This document shows, in pieces, positions 6,397 to 25,872 of a stretch of 26,802 nt of DNA. The notes beneath the pieces are model-generated. The model ran no database searches, was not told the origin of the DNA, and saw nothing but the letters and a program-made list of their open reading frames with translations. The stretch spans positions 1 through 26,802 of IMG/VR virus record IMGVR_UViG_3300030397_000389. One strand, written 5' to 3'. The translations under genes were made by a program, and so were the position numbers. The DNA is from a virus. Taxonomy: Duplodnaviria > Caudoviricetes. Position 1 is the stretch's first letter, and each line of letters opens with the position of its first letter.

Positions 6397-6618
6397 AAAT
6401 CACCTCCACCTTAACCCTCACGTGCGGCTCTTCTCGCACAGAACCACGATGTAGTCGCACAGGCGCTCTACGACGTCATCCAGCTCGCCCACCTCGTCTT
6501 GGGCATCAGAATCGCCGTTCATCGCCCGTTGCACCTGTTCGACGTAATCCAGTGCCTGCCTCCTGGTTGATTCAAATGCCACGCTAAATCACCTCCACCT
6601 TAACAGTCACGTGCGGCT
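6397..6618. repeat. 33-bp direct repeat (6397-6429 and 6586-6618, 31/33 identical) duplicating the rusA 3' end and RBS
   Basis: aaatcacctccaccttaac[cc/ag]tcacgtgcggct seen twice, 189 bp apart. Confidence 0.9.
6418..6582 (-). CDS. 54-aa hypothetical protein between the direct repeats
   Basis: GGAGGTG RBS, GTG start; MAFESTRRQALDYVEQVQRAMNGDSDAQDEVGELDDVVERLCDYIVVLCEKSRT. Confidence 0.6.
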   Translation of the reverse strand: MAFESTRRQALDYVEQVQRAMNGDSDAQDEVGELDDVVERLCDYIVVLCEKSRT

Positions 6619-7096
6619 GCTCGTCGCCGGCCGCGATGACCTTGGTTGCATCTAGCTGTGCTATCTGTGAGTCGTCGTGCCAGACCAGCTTGCTCAATGC
6701 GTCCTTGACGGCTTTGGCTAGGTTGTCCAGGTCTGGTCGCTTTGCGTGGGACACACGTGGCATGGGTTTGGTTTTCCACATCATCTGCCGGGGCCGCGGC
6801 ATAACGAATGTCAGCGTCAGTCGCAGCGGATCTCTGAGCGGCGGACCGTCGTAGACAGCCGATGCGGCTTCACGGCAGCTGGCCTTGAACGCGTTAACCG
6901 GGTGTTTCGTCGGTGTGTAGTTGCGGACTTGGCCGTTGACGAACGCCGAACGCTGGCGGGGCTGGGCGACTGGCACGGCGTGGACGTCAAACTCGATCGC
7001 GTCGTCGTTCGTGTCGAGTGTCATCACGACTACCAGCCGGTCTAAGCCGTCCTGTTCTTCCATGTCCCGGTTCGAGGATTTTCCGGCCATCGTCAA
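6584..7096 (-). CDS. rusA: RusA family Holliday junction resolvase (start may be 7024)
   Basis: PVAQPRQR, KRPDLDNLAKAVKDAL, WHDDSQI motifs. Confidence 0.92.
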   Translation of the reverse strand: MTMAGKSSNRDMEEQDGLDRLVVVMTLDTNDDAIEFDVHAVPVAQPRQRSAFVNGQVRNYTPTKHPVNAFKASCREAASAVYDGPPLRDPLRLTLTFVMPRPRQMMWKTKPMPRVSHAKRPDLDNLAKAVKDALSKLVWHDDSQIAQLDATKVIAAGDEQPHVTVKVEVI

Positions 7097-7281
7097 TCCT
7101 CGTCCAATTCAGCGTCGATAAACGTCTGCACCTCAAACAGCGTCCCTAGGCTGCGTGCCGTGCGGAGGACTATACGCAGCCTCGCCACCTCTTCCGACAG
7201 GCAGTTCGGGCAGCCCTCGGACGTGGCTTGGTGGTGGCAGACTTCGCACTCGTGAGTTTCGGCTTTCTCGCAATTCGTCAT
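7093..7281 (-). CDS. Small Zn-finger hypothetical protein
   Basis: GGAG RBS before ATG 7281; CEVC and CPNC motifs. Confidence 0.55.
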   Translation of the reverse strand: MTNCEKAETHECEVCHHQATSEGCPNCLSEEVARLRIVLRTARSLGTLFEVQTFIDAELDED

Positions 7282-7526
7282 GCCAACTGCTCCATATGGA
7301 TCAATGGGTGTGTATCGCAGCTCAAGCGTGCCTTCCGTGAGTCGTGTGGACACCATGCGAGGCTCTCGCCATGGTCGTGTATAGGACGTAATCGCCCGTC
7401 GCACTCGGGTATTTCGATCCGGACGAACGATGCACCGCCAATCGAGATCTCACTGACCAGACCGGCGTCCTGGTTATGTCCCATGATTTCCAAGATGCAC
7501 CACTGCTCGAACTTGCTCTCATCCAT
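7278..7526 (-). pseudogene. Phage gene with probable internal deletion near 7391-7404
   Basis: MDESKFEQWCILEIMGH...SFVRIEIPECDGR resembles a recurrent phage family; a plausible continuation (RRAITSY) is in another frame at the same bases. Confidence 0.5.
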
Positions 7527-7897
7527 ACTATCCAGTCCCAGTCCCAAAAGTTCGGGTCACGTTCACACTTGACCCAAAGTACGTTCGCGTTGGTCAGCGT
7601 CGTTATCCACCGGCTATTGAGCTTGATCTTTGAGCCGTACGTATGGTGGCGGTGGCGCCAATGGCACAGGGGACAGCCAACGATCGCCGCGCGCCGGTCC
7701 TCAACCCGAACCATCCGGCCGCCACCGGCTGCCACGTGCATCCGCTGCAACGACCAGTCCGCATACCACCAACGCGGCCGGTCCGATTGCGAGCGACCAC
7801 ACGCCCAGCACCATGGCTTGGCCGCGATCATGTCACGGTACGCGATCCCCTCAGGACTGCGGCGTTGACGTTGGCGCTTCTTGCTGATCGCTCGCAT
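7322..7897 (-). CDS. HNH/NinG-like Zn-binding putative nuclease (C-terminal tail overlaps next gene)
   Basis: Basic N-terminus, CWACG...H...CPLCH motifs; position upstream of rusA. Confidence 0.6.
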   Translation of the reverse strand: MRAISKKRQRQRRSPEGIAYRDMIAAKPWCWACGRSQSDRPRWWYADWSLQRMHVAAGGGRMVRVEDRRAAIVGCPLCHWRHRHHTYGSKIKLNSRWITTLTNANVLWVKCERDPNFWDWDWIVWMRASSSSGASWKSWDITRTPVWSVRSRLAVHRSSGSKYPSATGDYVLYTTMARASHGVHTTHGRHA

Positions 7898-8088
7898 TGA
7901 ATCCAAAACTCCTAGCGCACCGACCCCATAGAAAATATGAGTACCTCCGCTAACTGCTGGGCGACGCTCTTTGTGTCGGTCATTTCCTCCCGCAGGAGTT
8001 GGCCTCGGCCCACCGGGTAGGGCTGTACCATGCACGCCTGCCAACAGCACGCCTCGATCACTGCCAATCTGTGGCTATTTACCGCTGA

Positions 8089-8799
8089 TCAAGGTCTTGC
8101 GGTATCGGGATTGCGATCTCTGTAATCTGGCCAATTGCAGTACAGCCGCTCGCAATCCTCTCGCAGCCGACTGATTGTTTGCTCACCGAACAACTCCCTA
8201 GCACGGTCCAACGCGCTTGCACCCGAACAAATAGGTATGTTGCAGGTCACCCATGTGCCGCGCCCTTTTGTGTAGCGTGAATTTACGATCCGAAACAAAC
8301 ACTTCCTGTTCGCCTCGGTCGTTGCTTCGAGAACTGGGTCACTCAGACACACGATGTCAGGACTGTACAACTGATGCTCCCACCCTCCGTTGTCGCGCAC
8401 GTCTTGATACAACCGCTGCGTGTCCACCCATCGGCACGACATGCCTAAGTTCGCAGCATGCTTCAACAGCGCAATGACAACGTGATCCTTTCCTGTTCCA
8501 GGCGGTCCGTACAGAAACAGACTGCGACCCCTTTTCGCAAACTGGACTATGTCGCGACCAATTTCAATCAACTTGGACATGACGTCATTCTGACGCGTGT
8601 CGTAAATCTCAAAGTTTCGGATCGTGGCCCCTTTGTGACGTTCGCCAATATCAATTTTCAGCTGACGGATACAGCGGTCTCGCTTTTCCGCAGCCTCCCG
8701 ATCCCTCTCCCTAGCCGCTATCACCTCATCATCTTCTAGCTCGTAGTCGTTTAGGCGAGCGATGACTTCAGCCAGGCGATCTGAAATCAAGCTGCTCAT
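8089..8799 (-). CDS. DnaC/IstB-like ATPase (helicase loader)
   Basis: LFLYGPPGTGKDH Walker A, IVNSRY, TCN, SRLRE; ATGA coupling to the upstream replication gene. Confidence 0.88.
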   Translation of the reverse strand: MSSLISDRLAEVIARLNDYELEDDEVIAARERDREAAEKRDRCIRQLKIDIGERHKGATIRNFEIYDTRQNDVMSKLIEIGRDIVQFAKRGRSLFLYGPPGTGKDHVVIALLKHAANLGMSCRWVDTQRLYQDVRDNGGWEHQLYSPDIVCLSDPVLEATTEANRKCLFRIVNSRYTKGRGTWVTCNIPICSGASALDRARELFGEQTISRLREDCERLYCNWPDYRDRNPDTARP

Positions 8800-9791
8800 A
8801 TGTCTGCCTCCGCGTCCGTGAGGTGCATGGATCTTTTGGGCTGCGTTTTGTCTGTGGGATGGAACACTCCCTGCCACCCATTGGTGATAGAGTTTTCAAT
8901 GGCTTCCACGGCCACAGCTGGCCCCCATTTTTCCATCTTCGTAAACAGTCGGCTGATGCTAATCGTCGTCAGCTTTTTGCCTGATTGAGACCGAAATATC
9001 ACGAAGTCTTGCCATGCATTCACAAACCCTTCATCGCTTGCTAAGGACTTCGGCATCTTTGCATCTGGCTCGATTACCCCTGCGCCACCGCAACGAACAC
9101 AATTGACGACATCGTGCGAAGACCCCTTTTTTCCCGTCTTCCCGTTGCTCAGCTTGGCTGGCTTCGGGCCACCAATCGCCTCCTTGATCGATGCCGCTTC
9201 CCCAGACTTGACCGAGGCCACAATCTGCTGCTGGCTCTTCTTGTCGTACTCGGCCAGCTGCTGAACCTCGCTCTTGGTGGCTTTCAGGTCGCCAGACTGT
9301 ATCGCGTCCTTAATCGGCTTGGCGAGGCTGTCAACGGACTCGGCATATTGCCCGTCGCGTTTTACGGTTGCGGGTGATACTCTCGTTGCATCTGCCACTT
9401 GCTGTGCCGTGGTGCCCTCAGAAATTGGCTCATTTTGAGCCAATTTTTTGGGCCTTCCCGCAGCGTGCTGTTTCCGGCCGTTGTACAGCTTGCCTCTCAG
9501 ATAGGACGCTGCCTGTGGGCTCAGATTCCGCCTCCCCAGTTGGTGGTTGATAATCCAGTTCTTGGCCTCATTCGCGTCGGCGAACGTGCGGCAGACCGTG
9601 TCGTACTTGAGCTTGTGCTTCGTGGCGATCTTGAAGCGGTTGTGACCGTCGATTATCTGGTCTCGCCAGGTAACGATGTCGTCGAGCACACGACCGTCTT
9701 CGATGATGTTTGCCGCCAGCCGCTCGAACTCCTCGCTGGACAGCGGCGGACAGAGGGCCTCAAATTCAGGGTTGATTTGTAATTTTGCCAC
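8796..9791 (-). CDS. ParB-N domain/HTH protein fused to a phage replication-initiator-like C-terminus
   Basis: IIDGHNR, NHQLGRRNL, HTH (AQQVADATRVSPATVKRD), C-terminal WQDFVIFR...NSITNGWQGVF; precedes the DnaC-like gene. Confidence 0.75.
   Translation of the reverse strand: MAKLQINPEFEALCPPLSSEEFERLAANIIEDGRVLDDIVTWRDQIIDGHNRFKIATKHKLKYDTVCRTFADANEAKNWIINHQLGRRNLSPQAASYLRGKLYNGRKQHAAGRPKKLAQNEPISEGTTAQQVADATRVSPATVKRDGQYAESVDSLAKPIKDAIQSGDLKATKSEVQQLAEYDKKSQQQIVASVKSGEAASIKEAIGGPKPAKLSNGKTGKKGSSHDVVNCVRCGGAGVIEPDAKMPKSLASDEGFVNAWQDFVIFRSQSGKKLTTISISRLFTKMEKWGPAVAVEAIENSITNGWQGVFHPTDKTQPKRSMHLTDAEADI
9422..9446. repeat. Perfect 11-bp inverted repeat inside the ParB/replication gene
   Basis: AAATTGGCTCA-TTT-TGAGCCAATTT. 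Confidence 0.85.
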
Positions 9792-9798
9792 GGTTACG

Positions 9799-10209
9799 TC
9801 ACCTGACCTTGTAGTCCTTGTCGGTGTACGCGTGGTCCCGACCCATCCAGTTGTGCACGCTCATCGGCAGCGCGGTTCCAACTGGTGGCAGAATCCGGAC
9901 GCATAAAACGTTTCGCTTTCCAAAGCACTCCTTCAGGTATCGCTTGCTGACCGTGACCTTTTGGCCTTTCCACTTGTCGCGGTCGTTGCCAAACAGGGCG
10001 ACCATCACCCGGTAGTTGGTTCGGTTCAGAATCAGGCGCTTCGTAGCCTTCTCGAACCTGAGCATTGCCTCTGTGATCAGCTTCTTTGACTTGTCTTTCT
10101 CCGTTCCTCCGCGAATGACCTCTGCCACAACAAGCGAATACGGCTTGTCTAAGTCGAGCGCTTCGAGGTAATCACCCTCGTACTTCGGTTCAAGATCGGG
10201 TTTGGTCAT
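9799..10209 (-). CDS. Putative ssDNA-binding/recombination protein
   Basis: YLEALDL...LILNRTN...FGND..KWKGQKVTV pattern; sits between exonuclease and replication genes. Confidence 0.55.
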   Translation of the reverse strand: MTKPDLEPKYEGDYLEALDLDKPYSLVVAEVIRGGTEKDKSKKLITEAMLRFEKATKRLILNRTNYRVMVALFGNDRDKWKGQKVTVSKRYLKECFGKRNVLCVRILPPVGTALPMSVHNWMGRDHAYTDKDYKVR

Positions 10210-11036
10210 CCCTGGAACTCCAGCACGTCTTCGTCATCCATGGCGTAGTTCGGAATCACGAGTTCGCATTCCGCACCGACTCCGGGCCAAGAGTCCTCCT
10301 CAATGCACTCACGGACGCACTGCAGAATCTTCTCCGCTCGGGGCCAGGCGTTCTCAAGAACCGGCTCCCGAATCGGGAACACGGTGACGTCATAGTCATC
10401 CTTGGTTTCCACGGCGATGACCTTGACCTCTGGGATGTCTGCGCCCGTCAACTTCTCGACCCAACGCTTGTAGCAGGACATCTTCTCGGCATAGTGCAGA
10501 CGAGCGAAGATGCGGCCGAACGCGTGCGGCTCAACGTTCGTCGTCGTTTTCAGGTCAAGCAACAGTTTCCCGACCTGCAGCCCGTCCACCCTGCCTCTGC
10601 ACTGCATGCCAAAGTCTTCAAGGAACAGCGAGACCTCATGCTGTGTTGCCTCGATCAACTCCATTGCCTCGGGGGAATTGCGAACGGCATCCGCTGTCCG
10701 GCGGGCTTGGTCGTACGCGTCAGGGCTAACAGCCTCCTTTCCCTCGTTCTTCCACTTCCACAGCTGGTACTTTTTGCTGTCCTCACGCCGCTGTCCGTTG
10801 AAGATCGCGTAACGGCCGTAGAACGTGTCAGGCTCGAAGATCAGCAAGTGAGTGATTGAGCCAACCAGCAATCCCCGGTCCGGCTTGTCATCGCCGCCGT
10901 AGTTCTTGAACGACTTCATCGACTTAATGCCTTTGACTATGCGGCTCGGATTGATCCCAGGCGCCCGCTTGTAGTCTTCCCACGACATCGAAGCGTCGAT
11001 GTGGTTCTTGAACGGTGGTGAGGTAATAAATTCCAT
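10206..11036 (-). CDS. PD-(D/E)XK exonuclease, RecE/exonuclease VIII-like
   Basis: GSITHLLIFEP, CRGRVDGL, LLDLKTT motifs. Confidence 0.85.
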   Translation of the reverse strand: MEFITSPPFKNHIDASMSWEDYKRAPGINPSRIVKGIKSMKSFKNYGGDDKPDRGLLVGSITHLLIFEPDTFYGRYAIFNGQRREDSKKYQLWKWKNEGKEAVSPDAYDQARRTADAVRNSPEAMELIEATQHEVSLFLEDFGMQCRGRVDGLQVGKLLLDLKTTTNVEPHAFGRIFARLHYAEKMSCYKRWVEKLTGADIPEVKVIAVETKDDYDVTVFPIREPVLENAWPRAEKILQCVRECIEEDSWPGVGAECELVIPNYAMDDEDVLEFQG

Positions 11037-13860: not shown

Positions 13861-14097
13861 TCAGTCGGCTCGCCGGTAACTTCGAGGCGGGTCCTCATTG
13901 CCAGTCGCCACGATCCAGGCAATGACCTCTTTTCCGAGGTAGTAAACACGTCGGCCGCGGAACAACGGCTTGACAATGCCGGAATCGCACGCGTCACGAA
14001 TTGACTGGGGACCGAGCGCGGCGCAACGCCAAAGGCCCTCTTTCGTGTACACCTCGTCGGGTGATATCACGCCGATTAACTTGCCGGATGCAGCCAT
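13861..14097 (-). CDS. Excisionase-like winged-HTH protein
   Basis: EVYTKEGL...LGPQSIRDA...GRRVYYLGKEVIAWI pattern; second gene of the early operon, divergent from the integrase. Confidence 0.65.
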   Translation of the reverse strand: MAASGKLIGVISPDEVYTKEGLWRCAALGPQSIRDACDSGIVKPLFRGRRVYYLGKEVIAWIVATGNEDPPRSYRRAD

Positions 14098-14108: not shown

Positions 14109-14474
14109 TTACTGCGTGGAATCAGAGAGCTGTCTGACGAACGCATTGGCTGGCTTTCGTCCCGCACGCTTTGTGTGCAGAAGCATTCCATCGCGGATCA
14201 GGTCCTCTTCGGAATACTTCCCCGAAGCGACCGCGGCAGAAGCAGCCTTGCGGCAATTCCAGCACAACCCCCTCGCAACCGCCGGCTTCTCGCAGTCGTC
14301 AATAATGCAGATGCCCGCGTCAATCGACGGTTGAATTTTGTCTCGCACTTTCTTGGGAACTTTGACGTTCACAACGACCTCGCGAATGAGTACTTGCCGG
14401 CTGACAATCAGCATTCTGTTGAGCCTCCAGAGGGTGAAAGTGCTGCCTCCGTGCTCAACCCGTTTCCATGACAT
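14109..14474 (-). CDS. Zn-finger protein in the Cro position (alternative start GTG near 14372 with GAGGT RBS)
   Basis: CIIDDCEKPAVARGLCWNC...SGKYSEEDLI...GRK; first gene of the leftward operon. Confidence 0.8.
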   Translation of the reverse strand: MSWKRVEHGGSTFTLWRLNRMLIVSRQVLIREVVVNVKVPKKVRDKIQPSIDAGICIIDDCEKPAVARGLCWNCRKAASAAVASGKYSEEDLIRDGMLLHTKRAGRKPANAFVRQLSDSTQ

Positions 14475-14479
14475 GCGGG

Positions 14480-14508
14480 ATGTTATGATGAGACTAATAT
14501 TTCGTCAA
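14480..14508 (-). promoter_or_regulatory. Leftward (lytic) sigma70-type promoter
   Basis: TTGACG-17nt-TAACAT, 5 nt before ATG 14474. Confidence 0.7.
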
Positions 14509-14568
14509 TTGAAGATCAGGATCAAGATCTTAGTCAGGTGTCGTAAGTCAGGTGGCAGTCGTGACTTA

Positions 14569-14596
14569 TTGACCGAAATATTTTTCTCGATATGTT
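14569..14596 (+). promoter_or_regulatory. Rightward (lysogenic) sigma70-type promoter, probably giving a leaderless mRNA
   Basis: TTGACC-16nt-TATGTT, 7 nt before ATG 14604, no SD. Confidence 0.65.
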
Positions 14597-14603
14597 TCTT
14601 GGT

Positions 14604-15197
14604 ATGGAAATCAAACCGGCGGACGTGAAGTCGTTGAAGGAGATCGCGGATGCGATGCGAGGCTTAGCCGCCAAATTGGATGCAATATTTGTCGCGACCC
14701 CAGCCCCTCCGTTAGCCAAAATTGATGACAGCGAAGTGGCAACGCGCGTTGCAGCAAATCTCTGCCTTACCTGCGAAAAGAAGCCAGTGTCGCGTGGTCT
14801 TTGTCACGCCTGCAGGAAGGAGGCGGCGAAGAAAGTAAATAGCGGTGATTACAGTGAAGACGACCTAATCAGCGCAAACATGATGCTTCCGGCACAACGC
14901 CCTGGCCGCAAGTCCGAAAGCGGTTTCGCCAGGCGACTTCCGACAGCGACAGAACTTGCTGACGTACTTATGAATCCGGTCGAGGTGATCGTCAAAGACG
15001 GTGACGGCAACGTAACGCAGCACCTCAAGAACGGCGAAGACATGCTCTCTCGCCAGCAAAACAAACCCGACGACGCCTTCATTGCCGAACGTGACGCTCT
15101 AGTCGCAGAAGCCGAGCAAGCCGAAAAGGAAATGGAGCGAGATCGCGAAAGGAAGCCGCGTCGCAAGAAGGCGAAAAAGACAGCACGCAAGACCTGA
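14604..15197 (+). CDS. Zn-finger protein in the CI/repressor position (ORF open from 14592)
   Basis: CLTCEKKPVSRGLCHAC...SGDYSEDDLI...GRK; directly upstream of the integrase. Confidence 0.8.
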   Translation: MEIKPADVKSLKEIADAMRGLAAKLDAIFVATPAPPLAKIDDSEVATRVAANLCLTCEKKPVSRGLCHACRKEAAKKVNSGDYSEDDLISANMMLPAQRPGRKSESGFARRLPTATELADVLMNPVEVIVKDGDGNVTQHLKNGEDMLSRQQNKPDDAFIAERDALVAEAEQAEKEMERDRERKPRRKKAKKTARKT

Positions 15198-15203
15198 CCC
15201 GCC

Positions 15204-16286
15204 ATGCCTCGCGTTCTCGTCCGCCAGAAAGCCGACCGCAAGTTCCTGCAGCTGTACTATGTGGACCAGTTAACCGGCCTCGATGTCACGAAGTCGAGTC
15301 GCACGACTGACTGGGACGACGCCCAGCGTGCCGCGGCCAGATGGGAAGAGGAACTTGAGCAGACGGTTGCGTTCGAAGACGTGTCGTGGGAGCAGTTCCG
15401 ATACATTTTCGAATCCGAGCACATGGCCGGCAAATCGAAGGGTGCGCGCAAGACCATGTCGGCGGCGATGAATCACCTGGAAGAGGCGATTGGCTGCGCG
15501 CGCCGAGCCGCGGACATCAATTCGGCCGACATCAGCCGAATGCAGGCGGCTTGGCGTCGAGGCGGCATGAACCCGCAAACACTTGCCAGCTACCTGGGAA
15601 ACCTTCGTGCGGCGTTCAACTGGGGAAAGCGGATCGGATACCTTCGAAGGGCGCCTGAGTTCCTGCTGCCAAAGCGACCGGCCCGGCACATGCGGGGACG
15701 ACCGCTCACGGAGGCCGAATTCAAGCGATTCATGGCGACTATTGACGATTTGTACCCCGACGTTGCCCAGGGCTGGAAGCAGCTCGCCAAGGGGATCTGG
15801 CTGGGTGGCATGCGGCTGTCAGAGGCGATTGCCCTCGACTGGACGCAACCGCCGATTCGTGTCGACCTGGAAGGAGGGCGGCACCCCCGGCTGCGATTCC
15901 GAGCCGAGGGGCACAAATCCCGGCGTGACGCACTTTGCCCGATCACGCCCGAGTTCGCCAAGTTCCTTCGAAGGTGGAAGAAGACCGACCGCCAGGGCCC
16001 GGTGTTTCCTCTGCTGTCGCCGAAGAGCGGTCGGCCGCTGCGTGCGGAATCTCGCGTTAGCGAGGCACTAAGCGGCGTCGGCAAAGCGGCTGACATTATC
16101 GTCAACGAGGAGACCGGTAAGTACGCCAGTGCTCATGACCTTCGAAGGAGCTTCGGGACTCGCTGGGCGATGAAGGTCAAGCCGATCACACTTAAGGCCC
16201 TGATGCGGCACAAGTCGATCGAGACGACGCTGAAATACTACGTCGACCAAGATGCGGATGACGTGGCGGATGAATTGTGGAGCTGA
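15204..16286 (+). CDS. int: Tyrosine integrase
   Basis: GMRLSEA (R), HKS (K), HDLRRSF (HxxR), MRHKS (H), YYV (Y); N-terminal arm-binding-like segment. Confidence 0.96.
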   Translation: MPRVLVRQKADRKFLQLYYVDQLTGLDVTKSSRTTDWDDAQRAAARWEEELEQTVAFEDVSWEQFRYIFESEHMAGKSKGARKTMSAAMNHLEEAIGCARRAADINSADISRMQAAWRRGGMNPQTLASYLGNLRAAFNWGKRIGYLRRAPEFLLPKRPARHMRGRPLTEAEFKRFMATIDDLYPDVAQGWKQLAKGIWLGGMRLSEAIALDWTQPPIRVDLEGGRHPRLRFRAEGHKSRRDALCPITPEFAKFLRRWKKTDRQGPVFPLLSPKSGRPLRAESRVSEALSGVGKAADIIVNEETGKYASAHDLRRSFGTRWAMKVKPITLKALMRHKSIETTLKYYVDQDADDVADELWS

Positions 16287-16292
16287 CCTGGA

Positions 16293-16814
16293 GTGTTCGA
16301 AGAGCAACATCTAATCGGTGACACGGAAGAGTCGATTCGCCTAGACACTCGAACTGGCGAACCTATCACTAATTCACGCCCCCTGAAGCCGAACGGTACG
16401 GAAGACTACAAATTCAACCATTTCTGCGGCGAACACGGGGGAGGCACATGGAAGATTCGCTCGCTTGTTGATATTACCTACAATTGTGCGGGTCATGTCT
16501 GGGCAAGTCGACGTACTTGCATTTATGAAACGTCGGAATGGCGCAAGATTCTTGAACACGACGGATACCGAAAGACGAATCAACCCGTACCGGATGATCT
16601 TGTAATATACTGGCTTGAAGATGATTCTCTTGCCCACGTCGCACGCGTGTCGCATTTGGTTGATTCAGGATTGAGTCATCCGATTCCATTTGTGATCAGC
16701 AAATGGGGTGACACCGGAGGCGAGGTGTTTCATAAGGTGTCCGAAGTCCCAAACGCAATTCGAGGGCGATATGAATTCTGGACTGACAGACAGAGAGATA
16801 CGCCCGGTTTTTAG
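16293..16814 (+). CDS. Putative papain-fold Cys-His enzyme
   Basis: YNCAGHVW...DLVIY...AHVARV...SKWG...H motif order typical of small Cys-His catalytic domains. Confidence 0.6.
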   Translation: MFEEQHLIGDTEESIRLDTRTGEPITNSRPLKPNGTEDYKFNHFCGEHGGGTWKIRSLVDITYNCAGHVWASRRTCIYETSEWRKILEHDGYRKTNQPVPDDLVIYWLEDDSLAHVARVSHLVDSGLSHPIPFVISKWGDTGGEVFHKVSEVPNAIRGRYEFWTDRQRDTPGF

Positions 16815-17352
16815 CAGCTTCCTTTCGCCGGAGTTTGAAGTAAGCGTCTCGTTGGCCGGCACAAATGAAGCTTTGCATTCGATACTCGATCGCTCTCCGG
16901 TCGTAGAGGAGCTAAGGCAGTCACTTCAATCTGAAGCGGTTGCCGACGAAGAAGTGCGCGCGTTTGTGAATGGCCTGCTTCGGACCTTTCGTCCGGGTGT
17001 GCTCTTTGCTTATGACCTTGTGCTTGCTGCGATTGCGGTTGCTCTGTGTCGACGAAGAACACGCTTTGCCTCTGAGTATATTTCTGACTTAGCACAACTC
17101 AAAAGCTCCGAACTACGGCGCGCAGTTGCCATCGCACGATTAGTCAGACGAAATCGTTCGCACGCGTCGCGGACTATCGGCAGATCGATGACAATGGAAT
17201 CGCGACTACCATCGAACATTGTTACACGAGGGCCTTTCTCCCCGCCCGTGCGTCTGGTCATGCCTGTGCGAGAAGCATGCGCTGATGCACGCCAAGACTT
17301 ACCCCACCAGGACAAGGGCAATGCCCAAACTCGAGTATTTTCTAGTATGTGA
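16771..17352 (+). CDS. Hypothetical protein (middle moron gene)
   Basis: GAGGG RBS before ATG 16771; overlaps both neighbours. Confidence 0.65.
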   Translation: MNSGLTDREIRPVFSSFLSPEFEVSVSLAGTNEALHSILDRSPVVEELRQSLQSEAVADEEVRAFVNGLLRTFRPGVLFAYDLVLAAIAVALCRRRTRFASEYISDLAQLKSSELRRAVAIARLVRRNRSHASRTIGRSMTMESRLPSNIVTRGPFSPPVRLVMPVREACADARQDLPHQDKGNAQTRVFSSM

Positions 17353-17758
17353 ATCCATCTCGGTTGACCGCGACACAAATCGAATAAGCCTGTTCAACGT
17401 AATCGAAGAGGTTCATGTCGCAAAAACCATTGATGATGTCAGGGGGCCAGCGTTGTCGAATTTCGTTGCGGTGGCGTGCTGGAACAGGCAGGAGGGTGAC
17501 GAAGGGCGTGATTTTCAAGCGATGCTGAGAGTGTATTTACCCACACCAGAAGACGCCGATGACGTCGAACCGGGCGAGCTGACCATGAACTTTCGAACGG
17601 AGTCACCGCGACAGCGGCTCTTGATGCGGGTTTCAGCGCAGACCATCCCGTTTGTGCCACGCGGCAAGCTTCGGTTCGAACTACTGCTCAACGGCGAACA
17701 TTGCGCGGAGCATGAAGTTGCCGTCATCGGCCATGGCCAAACTTCGGACGACAGCTGA
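17321..17758 (+). CDS. Beta-sandwich hypothetical protein (DUF6941-like)
   Basis: FLVCESISVDRDTNRISLFNVIE N-terminus and G-x-L-x-FELLLNGE C-terminus; family recognised from memory. Confidence 0.65.
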   Translation: MPKLEYFLVCESISVDRDTNRISLFNVIEEVHVAKTIDDVRGPALSNFVAVACWNRQEGDEGRDFQAMLRVYLPTPEDADDVEPGELTMNFRTESPRQRLLMRVSAQTIPFVPRGKLRFELLLNGEHCAEHEVAVIGHGQTSDDS

Positions 17759-18011
17759 ACTGTACCCCCGACTGTACCCCCAGAGCCGTCTTGAGCTACC
17801 CGTCGCGGTTCGAAGAGGTGCGTGAAACCGCTGAAAAATGGTGGTTAGAGGTTGCTGCTGAAGGCTCTGGTAGATTTCGAATCAACCTCCTCACCAATTC
17901 GGATACCCTCCGGGTGTCTCCGCAACGTGTTAATCCATAACTGGTTGCGAAGATAAATCCGCTCGCGATTTTGACTCCTTGTTGCTCAACTGTACCCTCC
18001 AGTGTACCCCT
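17759..18011. other. attP: arm-type repeats flanking a core site
   Basis: ACTGTACCCCC x2 (17759, 17771) and ACTGTACCCTC/AGTGTACCCCT (17989, 18001), each pair with 12-bp period; core GTAGA-TTTCGAA-TCAAC at 17870-17886 lies roughly midway. Confidence 0.85.
17870..17912 (-). tRNA. 5' half of tRNA-Ser(CGA) (attP identity block; not a complete tRNA)
   Basis: (C)GGAGGG-TA-TCCG-AATTGGTG-AGGA-G-GTTGA-TTCGAAA-TCTAC: acceptor 5' strand, D-arm and anticodon arm; no T-arm follows. Confidence 0.75.
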
Positions 18012-18249
18012 GAGCGTCAACCGCAGCGAAGAATTCTACTGCAGACTCACTGAACCGTGAAGCGCTGACTTCGAAACAGGATAAGACCATTCTGTGTTCT
18101 CGGCTGAACGAATACTCTGCCAGCACAGAGTGAAACAGTTTCAGCGTCCAAGCTGTCTTTGGCATTGGCCTTCCAATCATTCGAACAGGTCTCCCCTCAT
18201 CCAGCGGGTCGTACAGTCCCAGCTGAATCCATCGTTCTCCTATAGCCAT
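17986..18249 (-). CDS. 87-aa hypothetical protein ending in the right attP arm
   Basis: AAGGAGGT SD 10 nt before ATG 18249. Confidence 0.55.
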   Translation of the reverse strand: MAIGERWIQLGLYDPLDEGRPVRMIGRPMPKTAWTLKLFHSVLAEYSFSREHRMVLSCFEVSASRFSESAVEFFAAVDAQGYTGGYS

Positions 18250-18925: not shown

Positions 18926-19821
18926 TTACTTCCGCGGCCGGCTCAGCCCCCGACGCTGGTCCCGCGGCAGCCACTCGCGGTTATCTACCATTAAGGGGCC
19001 ACCCACCCCCAAGACACTCCCTGGATAACCTTGCGGATCGTCGATGGGGCGACCCCATGGTGCCTTGCCAATTCCGAAATACTTGCTGTACTCGACCGAA
19101 TACTCCGAACGTCTCCCTCATTCAGCTTTGCACAATGAACGCGAGTTCCGCGGTATTCTTTGCACGAGACACCGCCTCCAGTCAGCCATGCCCAGCTCTT
19201 TCCGTTCGCAATTGCATCAATACTCTGGGCCTTTACTCCGTACCTGCGGGCTACGCTGCGCTGTGACTCACCACTTGCCAGTCGTCTGCAGATATCGCCA
19301 ACATCGTCCTCAGTGAGCTTGCCGATTCCGCTTCGCTCACCGCGATTCGACGTGCCGTGCCGTAGCCTGTCCTTGGCGTTTTCATGCCTTGTCCCCCAGC
19401 AAAGATTGGACAGTGCTGGGTTCCCCCGATTTCCATCCAAGTGCCGACATTCCTGCCCATCTGCCGCACCGCCGACAAACGCCTCAAGGACATACATAAG
19501 CACCTGATCGGTTCTTGATGTGAACCCGAGGATAGCCTTGCAGTAGATTTCCTGTCAGCTGCCGCCAAGGCCAATGTTTCTTTGATTTCCCTCTTTTGCA
19601 GCTCCAAACAGAACCATCTGTGCCGATCCGGTATCCAGGGTATTCGTCAAGTTCCGCGTACCGCGTGACATCCATTCGTCAATCCTCCGCAGACAATTAT
19701 ACAAAACACCCGGCGTAGAGTTGCCATCGACCACGTGATTCACCTCGATAACGTCAACCACGTCGCGGACGCATTGCTGGCGGGGGATGGCGGTGAATAG
19801 GAGGAGGACAGCGGCGGCCAT
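18926..19821 (-). pseudogene. Small secreted-protein gene interrupted by the HNH cassette (N-part from 19821, C-part 18926-18991)
   Basis: MAAAVLLLFTAIPRQQCVRDVVDVIEVNH... before the cassette and VDNREWLPRDQRRGLSRPRK* after it resemble both ends of one Planctomycete family (from memory). Confidence 0.45.
18991..19675 (-). pseudogene. NUMOD4-HNH homing endonuclease, frameshifted near 19490
   Basis: YPGYRIGTDGSVWS (NUMOD4) in 19484..19675; VLEAFVG, CRHLDGN, NLCWGT..EN plus two HTH repeats in 18991..19503; the expected VHRL is missing at the junction; own TATAAT and GGAGG. Confidence 0.85.
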
Positions 19822-22492: not shown

Positions 22493-23436
22493 TAGATTAC
22501 TCCCGGTAACACGGTTGGGACGCCTAACACGTCGCCAAAGTCAATTTCTTCATACACCTCAAACGGATCGAGCCCAGCCGTTGTGCCGTCGTAATACAGC
22601 GGCTCGGATGCGATTGCCCTCTTTGTTCCGTCTGCGTTCAGGTCGCCGATCCCGTCGCCGTATTCCAAGCCCTCATCAGATACAAACTTCTTACCAGGCT
22701 CAGCGTCACCCGCCGCGGCCTTGTATCGGGGGCCCTCGTTGCGTGGCTTGTATCGCCAGTCGTCGCCGTTAATCTTGGTTTCAAACCCAAACGTGCAGCG
22801 GAAGAACGGCGTACGTCCCCAGTATTCCAAGGTCCACTCGAACTCAGAGTAAAGCCATTTGCGAACGCCCTTGCCAAAGAATGACGTCGAGTTGATCGAA
22901 TCGCCGCTATCGGTAAACGCCGGCAGGTCGAACGTTGAAATGCTGTAGTATTTCTCTAGCCGTAGGTCGGACGTGCTTTCCGTCCGCGTCAGGTTTGGGA
23001 ACTTATCGCCTACCACATTACGGACAGCGTTCCCGTCTTTGTCCCTGTCCACTTCAACCAGGTGCTTTAGAAACGACCCACTCATCTTGGCAGGCAGCGT
23101 CGTTGGGTCCGTGACGTTCTGCACGAACGCCGGGTCGAACGCCGTAGGTGTGCCACGCGGGCGGCTGCTGTAGACAACAGTAACATCCCACACCTTCCAT
23201 GAGTCGCCCTCGTCTGACAGCTGAGCATCTATAGACTGGCGGTATGAGCCCTGGTCAAGTTCACTGCCGTAGGTGTACGTGTCCAGGTATCCAGGCAGGT
23301 CGTCGTCAATAACAACGCTCAGCGGCCCGTTGTTTACGGAGTCTGTTTCAACCTTATACATAACAACCGTGTTGCGGTGTCCGTCCGCATCAAACCCGCC
23401 GCGAGCACTGAATTCGTTAACTGAGGTGATTGCCAT
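22492..23436 (-). CDS. Putative distal tail/hub protein
   Basis: Immediately follows the tape measure gene, TAATG coupling. Confidence 0.6.
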   Translation of the reverse strand: MAITSVNEFSARGGFDADGHRNTVVMYKVETDSVNNGPLSVVIDDDLPGYLDTYTYGSELDQGSYRQSIDAQLSDEGDSWKVWDVTVVYSSRPRGTPTAFDPAFVQNVTDPTTLPAKMSGSFLKHLVEVDRDKDGNAVRNVVGDKFPNLTRTESTSDLRLEKYYSISTFDLPAFTDSGDSINSTSFFGKGVRKWLYSEFEWTLEYWGRTPFFRCTFGFETKINGDDWRYKPRNEGPRYKAAAGDAEPGKKFVSDEGLEYGDGIGDLNADGTKRAIASEPLYYDGTTAGLDPFEVYEEIDFGDVLGVPTVLPGVI

Positions 23437-25157
23437 TAGAAGTTCACCTCCTCAATCTTCAGTGCATCGCGTGTATTTTGCTCAATCCGCTCCAGCACCT
23501 GCAGCGTTTTTTTGGCGGCCTTAGCTACGTTTGCCTTCGCTTTATCCACAGTCCGCTGATCTAAGTTGAACGGCGCTGGCCCCGCCAGCTCTTCGGCAAT
23601 GCGTGCATTCCGGGCTGCAATTCCAGCACGAAACTCCTTTACCTCCGCTCTGACAACATTTGGATTGCCAAAGGGGAACCGCTGGGCAAGTTCTTTCGCG
23701 TGAAAGTTTGGGCCGCGACGGCTGGCGTTTGCAAATGCTTGGGCGGGGTTAAATGCAAACGGGAACCTACGCACGGACCTGTCCGGTTGTGCTGCCCTAT
23801 CAACAGCGTCAGCTGGGGGCGCGTTAAGAAATGCCTGCCCCGGACCAAACAGCTTGAACATCGGGTTGTCAGTCGCTTCATCCAGTTTGTCCAAACCTTT
23901 GCTAAGCAGCTTCAGGAATGGGCCCAGTCCCTTATGCGAAACAGACTGAAAACTAGCACTCAAACGGTTCATTGACTTCTCAAACTCGGGCACCGTCTTA
24001 TCCGCAATATCCTCCATCGTCCCCGTTGCGGTATTCAGGTCGCCGCGATAGTCCTTGATCGCCTTTGACATGCCCACAAGTGCTGCGATGTAACCGACAG
24101 ACTTATCCGTGAACCCCAGCGCCATCAACGTTGCCTTTCGCTGTGCAACCGACAGTGGCCCCAGTTTTGACTCCAGGTCGGCGACAATATCACTCATGGC
24201 GTGCATTTTTCCGTTAGCATCAAATACAGCAATGCCGGCACTCTTAAATGCACGCTCATTTCTAAGCGCCTTAGTCGTCAATTCGCGTAACACAATCGCC
24301 AATGCCGTTCCGCCATCAGCACCCTTAACTCCCTGGTCGGCGAACGCAGCCAGCACCGCAACGCCTTCCTCAATGCTCTTGTTTGTCTGCCTCAACGCAG
24401 CCCCAGCTTTGTTGGTAAGTGACTCCGAGAATTGCTGGACCGATGCGTTTGCAATTGTGTTTGCCTTAACAAGCACGTCGGCCACGCGGGTCATGTTTCG
24501 CATATTCTCAGCGGTGTCTTTGGACGTCAGACCCAGAGCTGATTGAGCGTCGGTTAACAAATCCGTTGCCAGTGCCAAATCAAAGTTGCCAGCTTGTGCG
24601 AACTTGGCAACCTTGGGAAGTGCAGCGATCTGTTGCGTGGCGTTCATCCCCGCGGATCCCAGGAAGAAATATGCCTCAGCAGCATCCTTGGTAGAGAAGG
24701 GCGTATCCTTAGCAACCTCCTTTGCGGTGCGGGTCATCTCATGGCGAATCTGTCCATTCATGTCGGCGATAATCGCGGTTGAGCGAGCCATTGCACTTTC
24801 AAAGTCACGTGTAGCCCGCAACGCCGCACCACCCACGCGGCTTACTAACGCCCCACCCACAATGGCCGAGCCGAACTTGCCCAACTCTGCTCCCAAGCTC
24901 GCTGCCGTAGTTTTTGTAGTCTTCATCTGGCCTGACAGCTGCTGATGAGCACGCCGATACGTGTGGACGTCAATTGCCCCCTTCTTGTAAAGAGCCCCTA
25001 GCGACTTTAACGAGGTCTCGAGTTTTTCCGCCGGCGTCTTGGTCTCGAACATGACCTTCTTGGCCAGGTTCAATTCCTTGCGACTGGCTACACTTCCGGA
25101 CACAAACTGCTTGTGGTCCATGACTAGCTTGTAAGCCAGTGTCTCAATAGCCATCAC
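23436..25157 (-). CDS. Tail tape measure protein (TP901-family core)
   Basis: FESAMAR, TPFSTKDAAEAYFFLGSAG, DLALATDLLTD, GVKGADGGTAL, FDANGKM motifs. Confidence 0.95.
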   Translation of the reverse strand: MMAIETLAYKLVMDHKQFVSGSVASRKELNLAKKVMFETKTPAEKLETSLKSLGALYKKGAIDVHTYRRAHQQLSGQMKTTKTTAASLGAELGKFGSAIVGGALVSRVGGAALRATRDFESAMARSTAIIADMNGQIRHEMTRTAKEVAKDTPFSTKDAAEAYFFLGSAGMNATQQIAALPKVAKFAQAGNFDLALATDLLTDAQSALGLTSKDTAENMRNMTRVADVLVKANTIANASVQQFSESLTNKAGAALRQTNKSIEEGVAVLAAFADQGVKGADGGTALAIVLRELTTKALRNERAFKSAGIAVFDANGKMHAMSDIVADLESKLGPLSVAQRKATLMALGFTDKSVGYIAALVGMSKAIKDYRGDLNTATGTMEDIADKTVPEFEKSMNRLSASFQSVSHKGLGPFLKLLSKGLDKLDEATDNPMFKLFGPGQAFLNAPPADAVDRAAQPDRSVRRFPFAFNPAQAFANASRRGPNFHAKELAQRFPFGNPNVVRAEVKEFRAGIAARNARIAEELAGPAPFNLDQRTVDKAKANVAKAAKKTLQVLERIEQNTRDALKIEEVNF

Positions 25158-25504
25158 ACACCCGTGATACTGCGGAGCATATTGAACTGATCATCAGCGG
25201 ATTGCACGTATACCTTCTGCTGCGGCTCCTCGCCGAATTCCGGCATGAAATCATCCGGCGTTTTCCAGTCGGACTCAGCAACCTCACCGCCAAGTCTCGA
25301 TGCGATTCGCAGGCTTGCGTTGTAGATGTCGCATCGTATGGCCGACACCATCTTCCACTGTCCGCCCCAGTCATCAAGCAATGCAAGTGCGTGAAAGAGC
25401 CGCAACTCATCGGGCGGCAGGTCGTCTATCTGGCTATCTGTCCAGCCAGTGCGAACCGCTAAGCGTTTTCGGAAGATTTCGTCGGGTCGTTTTCGGAGTT
25501 TTTT
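25154..25504 (-). CDS. Tail assembly chaperone T segment (gpGT, reached by -1 frameshift)
   Basis: Slippery A AAA AAC at 25498-25504; the -1 frame is open (KLRKRPDEIFRKRLAVRTGW...LRLFHAL) to 25154. Confidence 0.85.
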   Translation of the reverse strand, partial: KKLRKRPDEIFRKRLAVRTGWTDSQIDDLPPDELRLFHALALLDDWGGQWKMVSAIRCDIYNASLRIASRLGGEVAESDWKTPDDFMPEFGEEPQQKVYVQSADDQFNMLRSITGV

Positions 25505-25872
25505 ACCGCGTCCTCAATCAGCGTGAAATCGTTGTCGTCCGCGAATCCTGTATGCTTCTTGCACGCGTTGAACAGCGTCGTCACTACACCGCCGTCGATA
25601 CTGTCAAATACGCCGTTAAGTGCGTCGGCGTCGCTGAACATGGGCGTGGCGTCTGCGTTGAGTACGCACCGCGAAATCAGCAGCTCCTGCATTCGGTCGC
25701 CACGCTCGCGGATGAGTTCACCTTTGCGGTCCAGCAGTGACGTTCGTAGCTGCCGCATTTCCGTATTGGTCAACGACTGAATACGGATGTCGCCGATATC
25801 TAGCTTTACGATTTTGTAGCGTCGGCCGCTCGACTTGCTTAGCAGCTCTGACTTATCCAGCAGTGCCATCAT
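25459..25872 (-). CDS. Tail assembly chaperone (gpG-like)
   Basis: Between major tail and tape measure; ends ...DAVKNS at the slippery site. Confidence 0.85.
   Translation of the reverse strand: MMALLDKSELLSKSSGRRYKIVKLDIGDIRIQSLTNTEMRQLRTSLLDRKGELIRERGDRMQELLISRCVLNADATPMFSDADALNGVFDSIDGGVVTTLFNACKKHTGFADDNDFTLIEDAVKNSENDPTKSSENA

Follow-up and report, generated by a model that had tools for sequence, protein, structure and literature searches.

The two divergent genes at positions 14109 to 15197 of the window (the whole 26,802-nt stretch of viral DNA that was analysed) probably constitute a lambda-like CI/Cro lysis/lysogeny switch which is built on a treble-clef-type finger, the long protein being CI-like and the short protein Cro-like. 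The genes are arranged in the order int - long | short - xis - early genes. This arrangement recurs in other elements and comes along with a recurring promoter geometry, with tandem repeats between the promoters and with co-variation of the two partners. The roles themselves, with the long protein repressing and the short one opposing it, are assigned from position only and should be taken as presumptive.

The window element and its two finger genes

The window comes from a linear, fragmentary record for which CheckV estimates 26% completeness. Tail genes (tape measure and tail assembly chaperone; 23436..25872, - strand) lie beyond the integrase and therefore mark the element as a tailed phage. 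The short zinc-finger gene (P0001, 101 aa; 14109..14414, - strand) occupies the Cro slot and heads the early/lytic operon. Directly 3' of it a small Xis-like HTH protein is encoded (13861..14097, - strand). Its HTH_17 match is below the cut-off in the window (E 0.0065), and the same slot in relatives scores HTH_17/Tn916-Xis. Early recombination and replication genes follow, coding for an exonuclease VIII-like protein, an O-like initiator, a DnaC-like loader and RusA (6584..11036, - strand). The long zinc-finger gene (197 aa from 14604; 14604..15197, + strand) takes the CI slot, and a tyrosine integrase (15204..16286, + strand; PF00589 E 4.8e-11, phrog_1 E 5.5e-36) starts 7 nt past its end. The initial annotation had placed the short gene at the head of an Xis/replication operon and the long gene at the head of an integrase operon; the gene order found here agrees with both.

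Between the integrase and the tail genes, a putative attP region (17754..18022) carries two arm-type direct-repeat pairs (CTGTACCC core), 230 nt apart, around a CCA-ending stretch. In three of three runs of one study, from which the window may derive, this region is spanned by single contigs with no joint or loose end; hence the element has the appearance of a temperate tailed phage that is not integrated. Searches of the window for tRNA, tmRNA and Rfam families gave no match, and none was called at the attP-like site. Three genes of lower GC content with weak CHAP and DUF6941 matches are located between integrase and attP-like region (16293-17758, + strand) and are likely cargo expressed in the lysogen. 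Downstream of the early region a trypsin-like protease with a collagen repeat is encoded (965-2512, - strand). In one run (X3), loose contig ends at 13776 and 14379 with raised depth were seen around the xis/short-gene stretch; chimeric contigs or a variant of this module may account for them. Since the relatives carrying the divergent pair are mostly Pirellulaceae genomes, the host of the phage is likely a member of the Pirellulaceae (Planctomycetota).

The reading frames are open from 14474 to 14109 (- strand) for the short gene and from 14592 to 15197 (+ strand) for the long gene, and both peptides quoted earlier are present as written. The database gene call makes 14414 the most likely start of the short gene. 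For the long gene, the alignment with its relative P0003 and the promoter geometry point to 14604 as the most likely start. The intergenic region would thus be ~14415-14603. Of the region 14475-14603, which had been suggested for footprinting, the right end stands and the left end shifts to ~14415.

The two proteins share a ~70-aa domain (CxxC...RGLCxxC-helix) in which 33 of 71 residues are identical (46%; BLASTP E 8e-20 in a single comparison), and the gap between their genes contains two outward sigma70-like sites compared to 0.5 +/- 0.7 in shuffles. The divergent genes with a common domain around back-to-back promoters are thereby confirmed. The short protein consists of an N-terminal extension, a CxxxxC knuckle, RGLCxxC, helices and a GRK motif. 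Its AlphaFold2 model is confident (pLDDT 89.5), with the helix beginning at the second CxxC. The long protein comprises an N-terminal amphipathic helix, the finger domain, a low-confidence linker, a C-terminal helix and a K/R-rich tail; its AlphaFold2 helices span residues 9-35, 72-84 and 161-187, and the model is confident for the finger and the N-terminal helix. In the phylogenetic tree the short and long proteins of the window are sisters (support 95/88). Recent gene conversion within the window pair is unsupported, as only 8 of 26 identical residues share the codon. P0003 (232 aa), to which the long protein is most closely related (57%), continues into a segment similar to the central part of the window integrase, likely owing to a deletion or an assembly join.

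Fold and recurrence of the finger family

Both proteins are predicted to bind zinc via a treble-clef-type fold. The best fold rows were treble-clef fingers, namely A20 (Z 2.8) and nuclear-receptor DNA-binding domains (DBDs; Z 2.0-2.3), all of them weak (Z<3). A treble-clef finger is described as combining a knuckle, a hairpin and a helix headed by a CxxC (PMC4999995). The window domain, as modelled, appears to follow the succession knuckle, hairpin, CxxC and helix of the first finger of nuclear-receptor DBDs and of A20-type fingers, and its co-varying residues (see below) fall on P-box positions. Unlike those, it is a single finger with extra short helices, and given Z<3 and the lack of a PDB sequence match we claim a likeness in fold only. 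Foldseek against PDB and BFVD returned nothing at E<=0.001 and the PDB sequence search with an 86-row profile gave E 0.036 at best, which does not establish a new fold.

Pfam, PHROGs and NCBIfam yielded only sub-threshold knuckle matches to the finger domain, and no HTH family was found on the two window proteins in Pfam and PHROGs. The finger domain is an unnamed family. A link to the fingers of HNH/endo VII proteins, as drawn in the initial annotation, extends over a 22-residue knuckle (phrog_5351, residues 52-73, E 0.007; weak BFVD rows) and not beyond. No fusion of the finger to a His-Me catalytic domain was found; the pair members are 90-200 aa in length and have no HNH match.

Small phage C4 zinc fingers affecting transcription are known from TraR/DksA (lambda Orf73) and P2 Ogr. 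As an alternative reading, the fingers might bind RNA polymerase or another protein, as TraR/DksA-like fingers or HNH accessory knuckles, and reside in their slot for expression reasons instead of reading DNA sequence. TraR-type C4 rows appear in the Atlas structure search at TM 0.36-0.38 (below threshold), the knuckle weakly matches an HNH family, and A20-type ubiquitin binders top the fold list. For the C4 finger itself (zf-dskA_traR / TIGR02419), there is no match in Pfam, and in NCBIfam a single member out of 86 has a sub-threshold one (E 0.008). However, every one of these supporting scores is sub-threshold. TraR/DksA and Ogr, to which no family match above threshold exists, are moreover not paired repressors in an immunity slot, and the element-specific repeats as well as the co-variation at helix columns 4, 5, 8 and 12 presented below would be left unexplained. 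We therefore judge pure protein binding highly improbable.

A three-row profile retrieved 430 clusters at E<=0.001. The best 150 of these 430 comprise minimal proteins of 65-90 aa, short-like proteins of ~100 aa with an N-terminal extension, long-like proteins of 135-200 aa, which have an N-terminal helix and a basic tail as in the long gene, and multi-copy proteins. Across the family, RG and the four ligands hardly vary. His is the fourth ligand of the short protein in 11 of 22 non-redundant pairs, and the third ligand is His in several. The designation as Cys4 fingers is hence correct for the window but not as a general rule, half of the pairs being Cys3His. Word-index searches found only one relative of the finger proteins, tblastn against cultured phages nothing meaningful, and back-translated pattern searches from single proteins or A1 no true loci.

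The domain is also present outside switches, as lone copies in early operons and as chromosomal orphans in non-phage surroundings. Six loci carry co-oriented tandem minimal finger genes (L045, L050, L058, L129, L297 and L306), so that the assumption of all two-copy loci being divergent is false. Three proteins with 2-4 finger repeats (P0007, P0021, P0035) were likewise seen outside the switch layout.

Divergent short/long pairs were found in 26 loci, the window and 25 others, mostly from Pirellulaceae genomes. Pattern scans resulted in 157 loci, and the domain was present in 54 of the 159 loci examined; the first pairs from these scans belonged to two Pirellulaceae MAGs, one viral contig and one metagenome contig. 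Within the family of one pair-bearing MAG 39 of 401 genomes matched, and flank retrieval and HMM refinement brought the number of divergent pairs to 25 including the window. An order-level sample (18 of 381 genomes matched) contained one further pair (G829). In a phylum sample at least 20 of 401 genomes matched, these counts being lower bounds with 11-15 candidates scored per genome, and no divergent pair was found besides that of the reference genome G001. One locus fetched by integrase similarity alone (L002) carried the divergent pair, and an Xis-like gene came next. The record of this locus bears the label Saccharibacteria, from which we infer a misbinned phage contig. The near-duplicates L213, L218 and L225 were left out of pooled statistics.

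In every pair one member has the longer C-terminal extension, which is basic at its end where complete. The tyrosine integrase is on the long-gene side in 18/25 pairs, on the short side in 1/25 (L229, after a ParB-like gene) and was not seen in 6/25, four of which end within 1.5 kb. The initial annotation had proposed an HMM check for divergent pairs next to integrases, and such pairs do recur. Short-side genes include HTH_17/Xis in seven loci besides the window, RecT/DUF3799 in two and DnaB in two. Near the beginning of the early genes, again on the short side, 8/25 elements have a CsrA-family gene (L133, L198, L205, L213, L217, L218, L224, L225). L194 has one HTH_17 on the long side, adjoining the integrase. 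A terminase was located near the pair in five of the seven elements checked, together with a portal in four (scan of 73 large ORFs, i.e. 72 of 117 picked and one more, cut to 600 aa).

On the long side an unnamed conserved gene of ~150 aa lies next to the integrase in 13/25 pairs (e.g. L206:12731-13186, L224:1290-1727, L201:5646-6110) and is absent from the window. It is a candidate for an induction or excision factor. By eye it appeared to be a WYL-like sensor, which Pfam, PDB and hhalign did not support. In L201 (9756-9944) the short gene of G226 loses similarity past the helix and host-like genes follow, so this locus is likely a decayed prophage with intact long gene and repeats.

Neither HTH_3 nor S24 was detected among 253 ORFs neighbouring the pairs (crude caller, within 4.5 kb). 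A six-frame search of the window contig gave no S24 and only a weak HTH_3 inside an HNH gene (19195-19284). The earlier impression that no XRE HTH or S24 is evident thus holds for the CI slot, judged from the window contig as a 26% complete fragment and from five relative genomes. Since the window is incomplete to this extent, the pair might merely consist of DNA-binding autoregulators of two operons while another master repressor elsewhere in the genome confers immunity, and the lone finger copies acting as ordinary early genes as well as the orphans in non-phage surroundings would fit. The relatives, however, point in the other direction. In G001 and G150 the contigs that carry the pair (G001:C27 and G150:C18) have no HTH_3. 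It is found no closer than >160 kb from the pair in G175 and G141, and in G362, a complete genome with its prophage near 1.04 Mb (G362:C1), amounts to a weak match after RusA. S24 was on other contigs or absent in five whole genomes and in none of them on the pair-bearing contig. Moreover the slot, the polarity and the promoter, with its predicted leaderless transcript, correspond to those of cI. We hence regard mere autoregulation as quite improbable.

Promoters, candidate operator repeats and partner co-variation

In the window a predicted PR-like promoter serves the short gene (14508-14480, - strand; TTGACG-17-TAACAT) and a predicted PRM-like promoter the long gene (14569-14596, + strand; TTGACC-16-TATGTT), the latter ending 7 nt before the ATG at 14604. 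The candidate operator zone between their -35 elements (14510..14568) contains A(A/G)GATC three times (14512-14529), AGTCAGGTG twice (14532-14540 and 14546-14554) and the inverted TAAGTCA-N11-TGACTTA (14544-14568). Upstream of the PRM-like -35, the loci have a TAAGT-N11-14-ACTT motif in common, which may be a site for a host nucleoid protein, IHF-like.

A -35 element (TTG/TTA-type) is positioned 33-38 nt before the long ATG in 18/24 loci and before the short ATG in 0/24, with a background of 0.07. Based on this distance the long-gene mRNA is predicted to be leaderless in a cI-like manner. The short-gene promoter is TTGAC-type and stronger, and is found 93-125 nt from the long ATG in 22/24 loci. 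For these counts L211 was dropped as it has no clear start, and starts were picked by eye, that of the window with the promoter in view. Leaderless cI mRNAs are described for lambda and PY54 (PMC4488713).

The 60 nt between the promoters exhibit a period of 11 bp (lag 11: z 9.0 and 10.4 in two runs; lag 22: z 6.6-7.2). Tandem repeats of 11 bp (z>2.5) are present in 15/21 loci compared to 2/36 host head-to-head controls. The repeat unit is element-specific, i.e. its sequence differs between elements, and the repeats lie over the -35 of PR. A-tract curvature as the source of the signal was rejected because G/C-only analysis still gave z 8.9 and the controls were flat (5/36 controls AT-rich). No clear 11-bp period is evident in the window, where lags 6 and 12 score best with z 2.0 and 1.7, not significant alone.

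Co-variation was evaluated by permuting partners within clades, with columns counted from the R of RG as 0. Identity to the own partner at helix columns 4, 5, 8 and 12 amounted to 10 vs 2.6, 7 vs 3.1, 8 vs 2.8 and 10 vs 5.1 expected, respectively. Columns 4, 5 and 8 pooled gave 25 vs 8.5-10.1 expected (p<1e-4), in a test that is not fully blind because these columns were first spotted in the earlier column-wise test. The excess holds without two sister pairs and with finer strata, and neither the other helix columns nor the rest of the domain showed excess partner identity in the pooled test. Columns 4, 5 and 8 coincide with the P-box, whose three positions in the nuclear-receptor motif C-E-G-C-K-G are given in PMC3908500. 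The long proteins of clade B (Cys3His) group to the exclusion of the short ones (support 99), therefore the sharing of residues has arisen by convergence in each element. For the long proteins of clade A, monophyly is not rejected (p-AU 0.095). Such co-variation is as expected if both proteins read the same element-specific operators.

A second layout was observed in 15 single-finger loci (L099:1325-1591, L108, L019, L059, L077, L015, L191, L208, L222 and others), where the gene across the promoters encodes an all-helical protein of 75-130 aa with no Pfam family and unrelated to the finger. The integrase is on the helical side in 4/15 and on the finger side in 0/15, the 10-11-bp period is weaker (z 3.0-3.5), and leaderless geometry is seen in 1/15. 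Hence the CI slot is modular and a finger is not required there. The first helix of the helical protein is weakly similar to the N-terminal helix of the long protein (hhalign probability 7.7%, 24 columns).

This second layout keeps alive the idea of a repressor/antirepressor pair like CI:Mor of TP901-1, or of an activator/anti-activator pair, working mainly via a complex of long and short protein and not via competition for operators; for divergent CI/Mor pairs direct interaction is described (PMC11149083). Co-variation restricted to predicted base-reading positions is nevertheless more in line with common DNA sites than with a contact surface between the proteins, and the tandem repeats over the PR -35 argue likewise for operator binding. 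Moreover, such a complex can coexist with the operator model, Mor being antirepressor and corepressor at once. As the main mode of action we consider it rather unlikely.

The helical family matches 60/401 Pirellulaceae genomes, and in 12 further loci no gene of the finger family was seen opposite. The family, also represented by L254-L266, includes a highly conserved subfamily in these 60 genomes that is often chromosomal and has a basic N-terminal tail, possibly a domesticated repressor or nucleoid protein. In L254, L255, L258 and L262 the gene opposite encodes a different small protein, which is helical in its N-terminal part and ends in a CxxC...WPCxxC knuckle.

A proposed switch and its relation to known systems

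Under the CI/Cro-like model, long protein and integrase would be made in the lysogen from the weak leaderless PRM-like promoter. The fingers of the long protein would bind the 11-bp repeats head-to-tail, one per helical turn and overlapping the PR -35, aided by the N-terminal helix (oligomerisation) and the basic tail (backbone contact). This array would silence the early operon and thereby hold lysogeny. Once the long protein falls, PR would fire and the short protein would be made first. Having the same base-reading residues and no tail, it would take the same array, block the return to the PRM state and later temper PR.

Induction by an antirepressor or by proteolysis is more likely than by self-cleavage, which is ruled out by the lack of an S24 domain. 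Redox or metal sensing is described as possible for treble clefs in general (PMC4999995). RecA-independent induction of this kind, as the initial annotation had supposed, is unsupported here, with half of the pairs using His ligands and SOS control via an antirepressor still compatible with the missing S24. The proposal of a new switch class consequently survives in part: the recurring divergent pair in the CI/Cro slot by integrases with no HTH or S24 there stands, whereas the Cys4 and the redox/RecA-independent components do not.

To our knowledge, almost all described lysis/lysogeny switches are helix-turn-helix proteins. The window pair resembles lambdoid CI/Cro (lambda, 434, PY54/N15 immB) by divergent paralogous regulators at back-to-back promoters, the small one heading the early operon, by a larger gene whose mRNA is predicted to be leaderless and by partners sharing predicted recognition residues. 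In contrast to these it is devoid of XRE HTH and S24 and has a predicted zinc finger instead, and its candidate operators are 11-bp tandem direct repeats, whereas lambda operators are symmetric (palindromes). CI:Mor of TP901-1/phi13 has the gene order int - CI | Mor - early genes - replication and partners related in fold, which the window pair shares, but is HTH-based and not finger-based.

Non-HTH phage repressors do exist, such as Arc/Mnt of P22. In SPbeta-like phages SroF is described as a non-HTH master repressor with an integrase-like fold that is induced via the antirepressor Sar (10.1101/2025.11.27.690993). It has in common with the proposed switch a master repressor outside the HTH family and the absence of self-cleavage; it differs by another fold and the lack of a paralogous Cro-like partner, and no antirepressor was identified in the window system. 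The switch logic is thus known and the protein family is new. Neither a zinc-finger immunity switch nor a planctomycete prophage repressor was found in the full-text literature searched, most subscription papers being outside its scope.

In its widest form, our reading is that Pirellulaceae phages evolved a CI/Cro-type bistable switch independently, from a duplicated treble-clef finger with P-box-like reading, a head-to-tail polymer on 11-bp repeats and a modular CI slot, and that the finger proteins are a new prokaryotic family of sequence-specific transcription factors with a readable code. We give this an even chance. If true, it would be a clear instance of bistable logic having evolved convergently, here out of zinc fingers of an unnamed family, and would account for unannotated repressors in planctomycete prophages. 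The ~25 natural protein/operator pairs would make the recognition code directly testable, and as small orthogonal repressor-operator pairs they would be of practical use in a phylum for which genetic parts are scarce.
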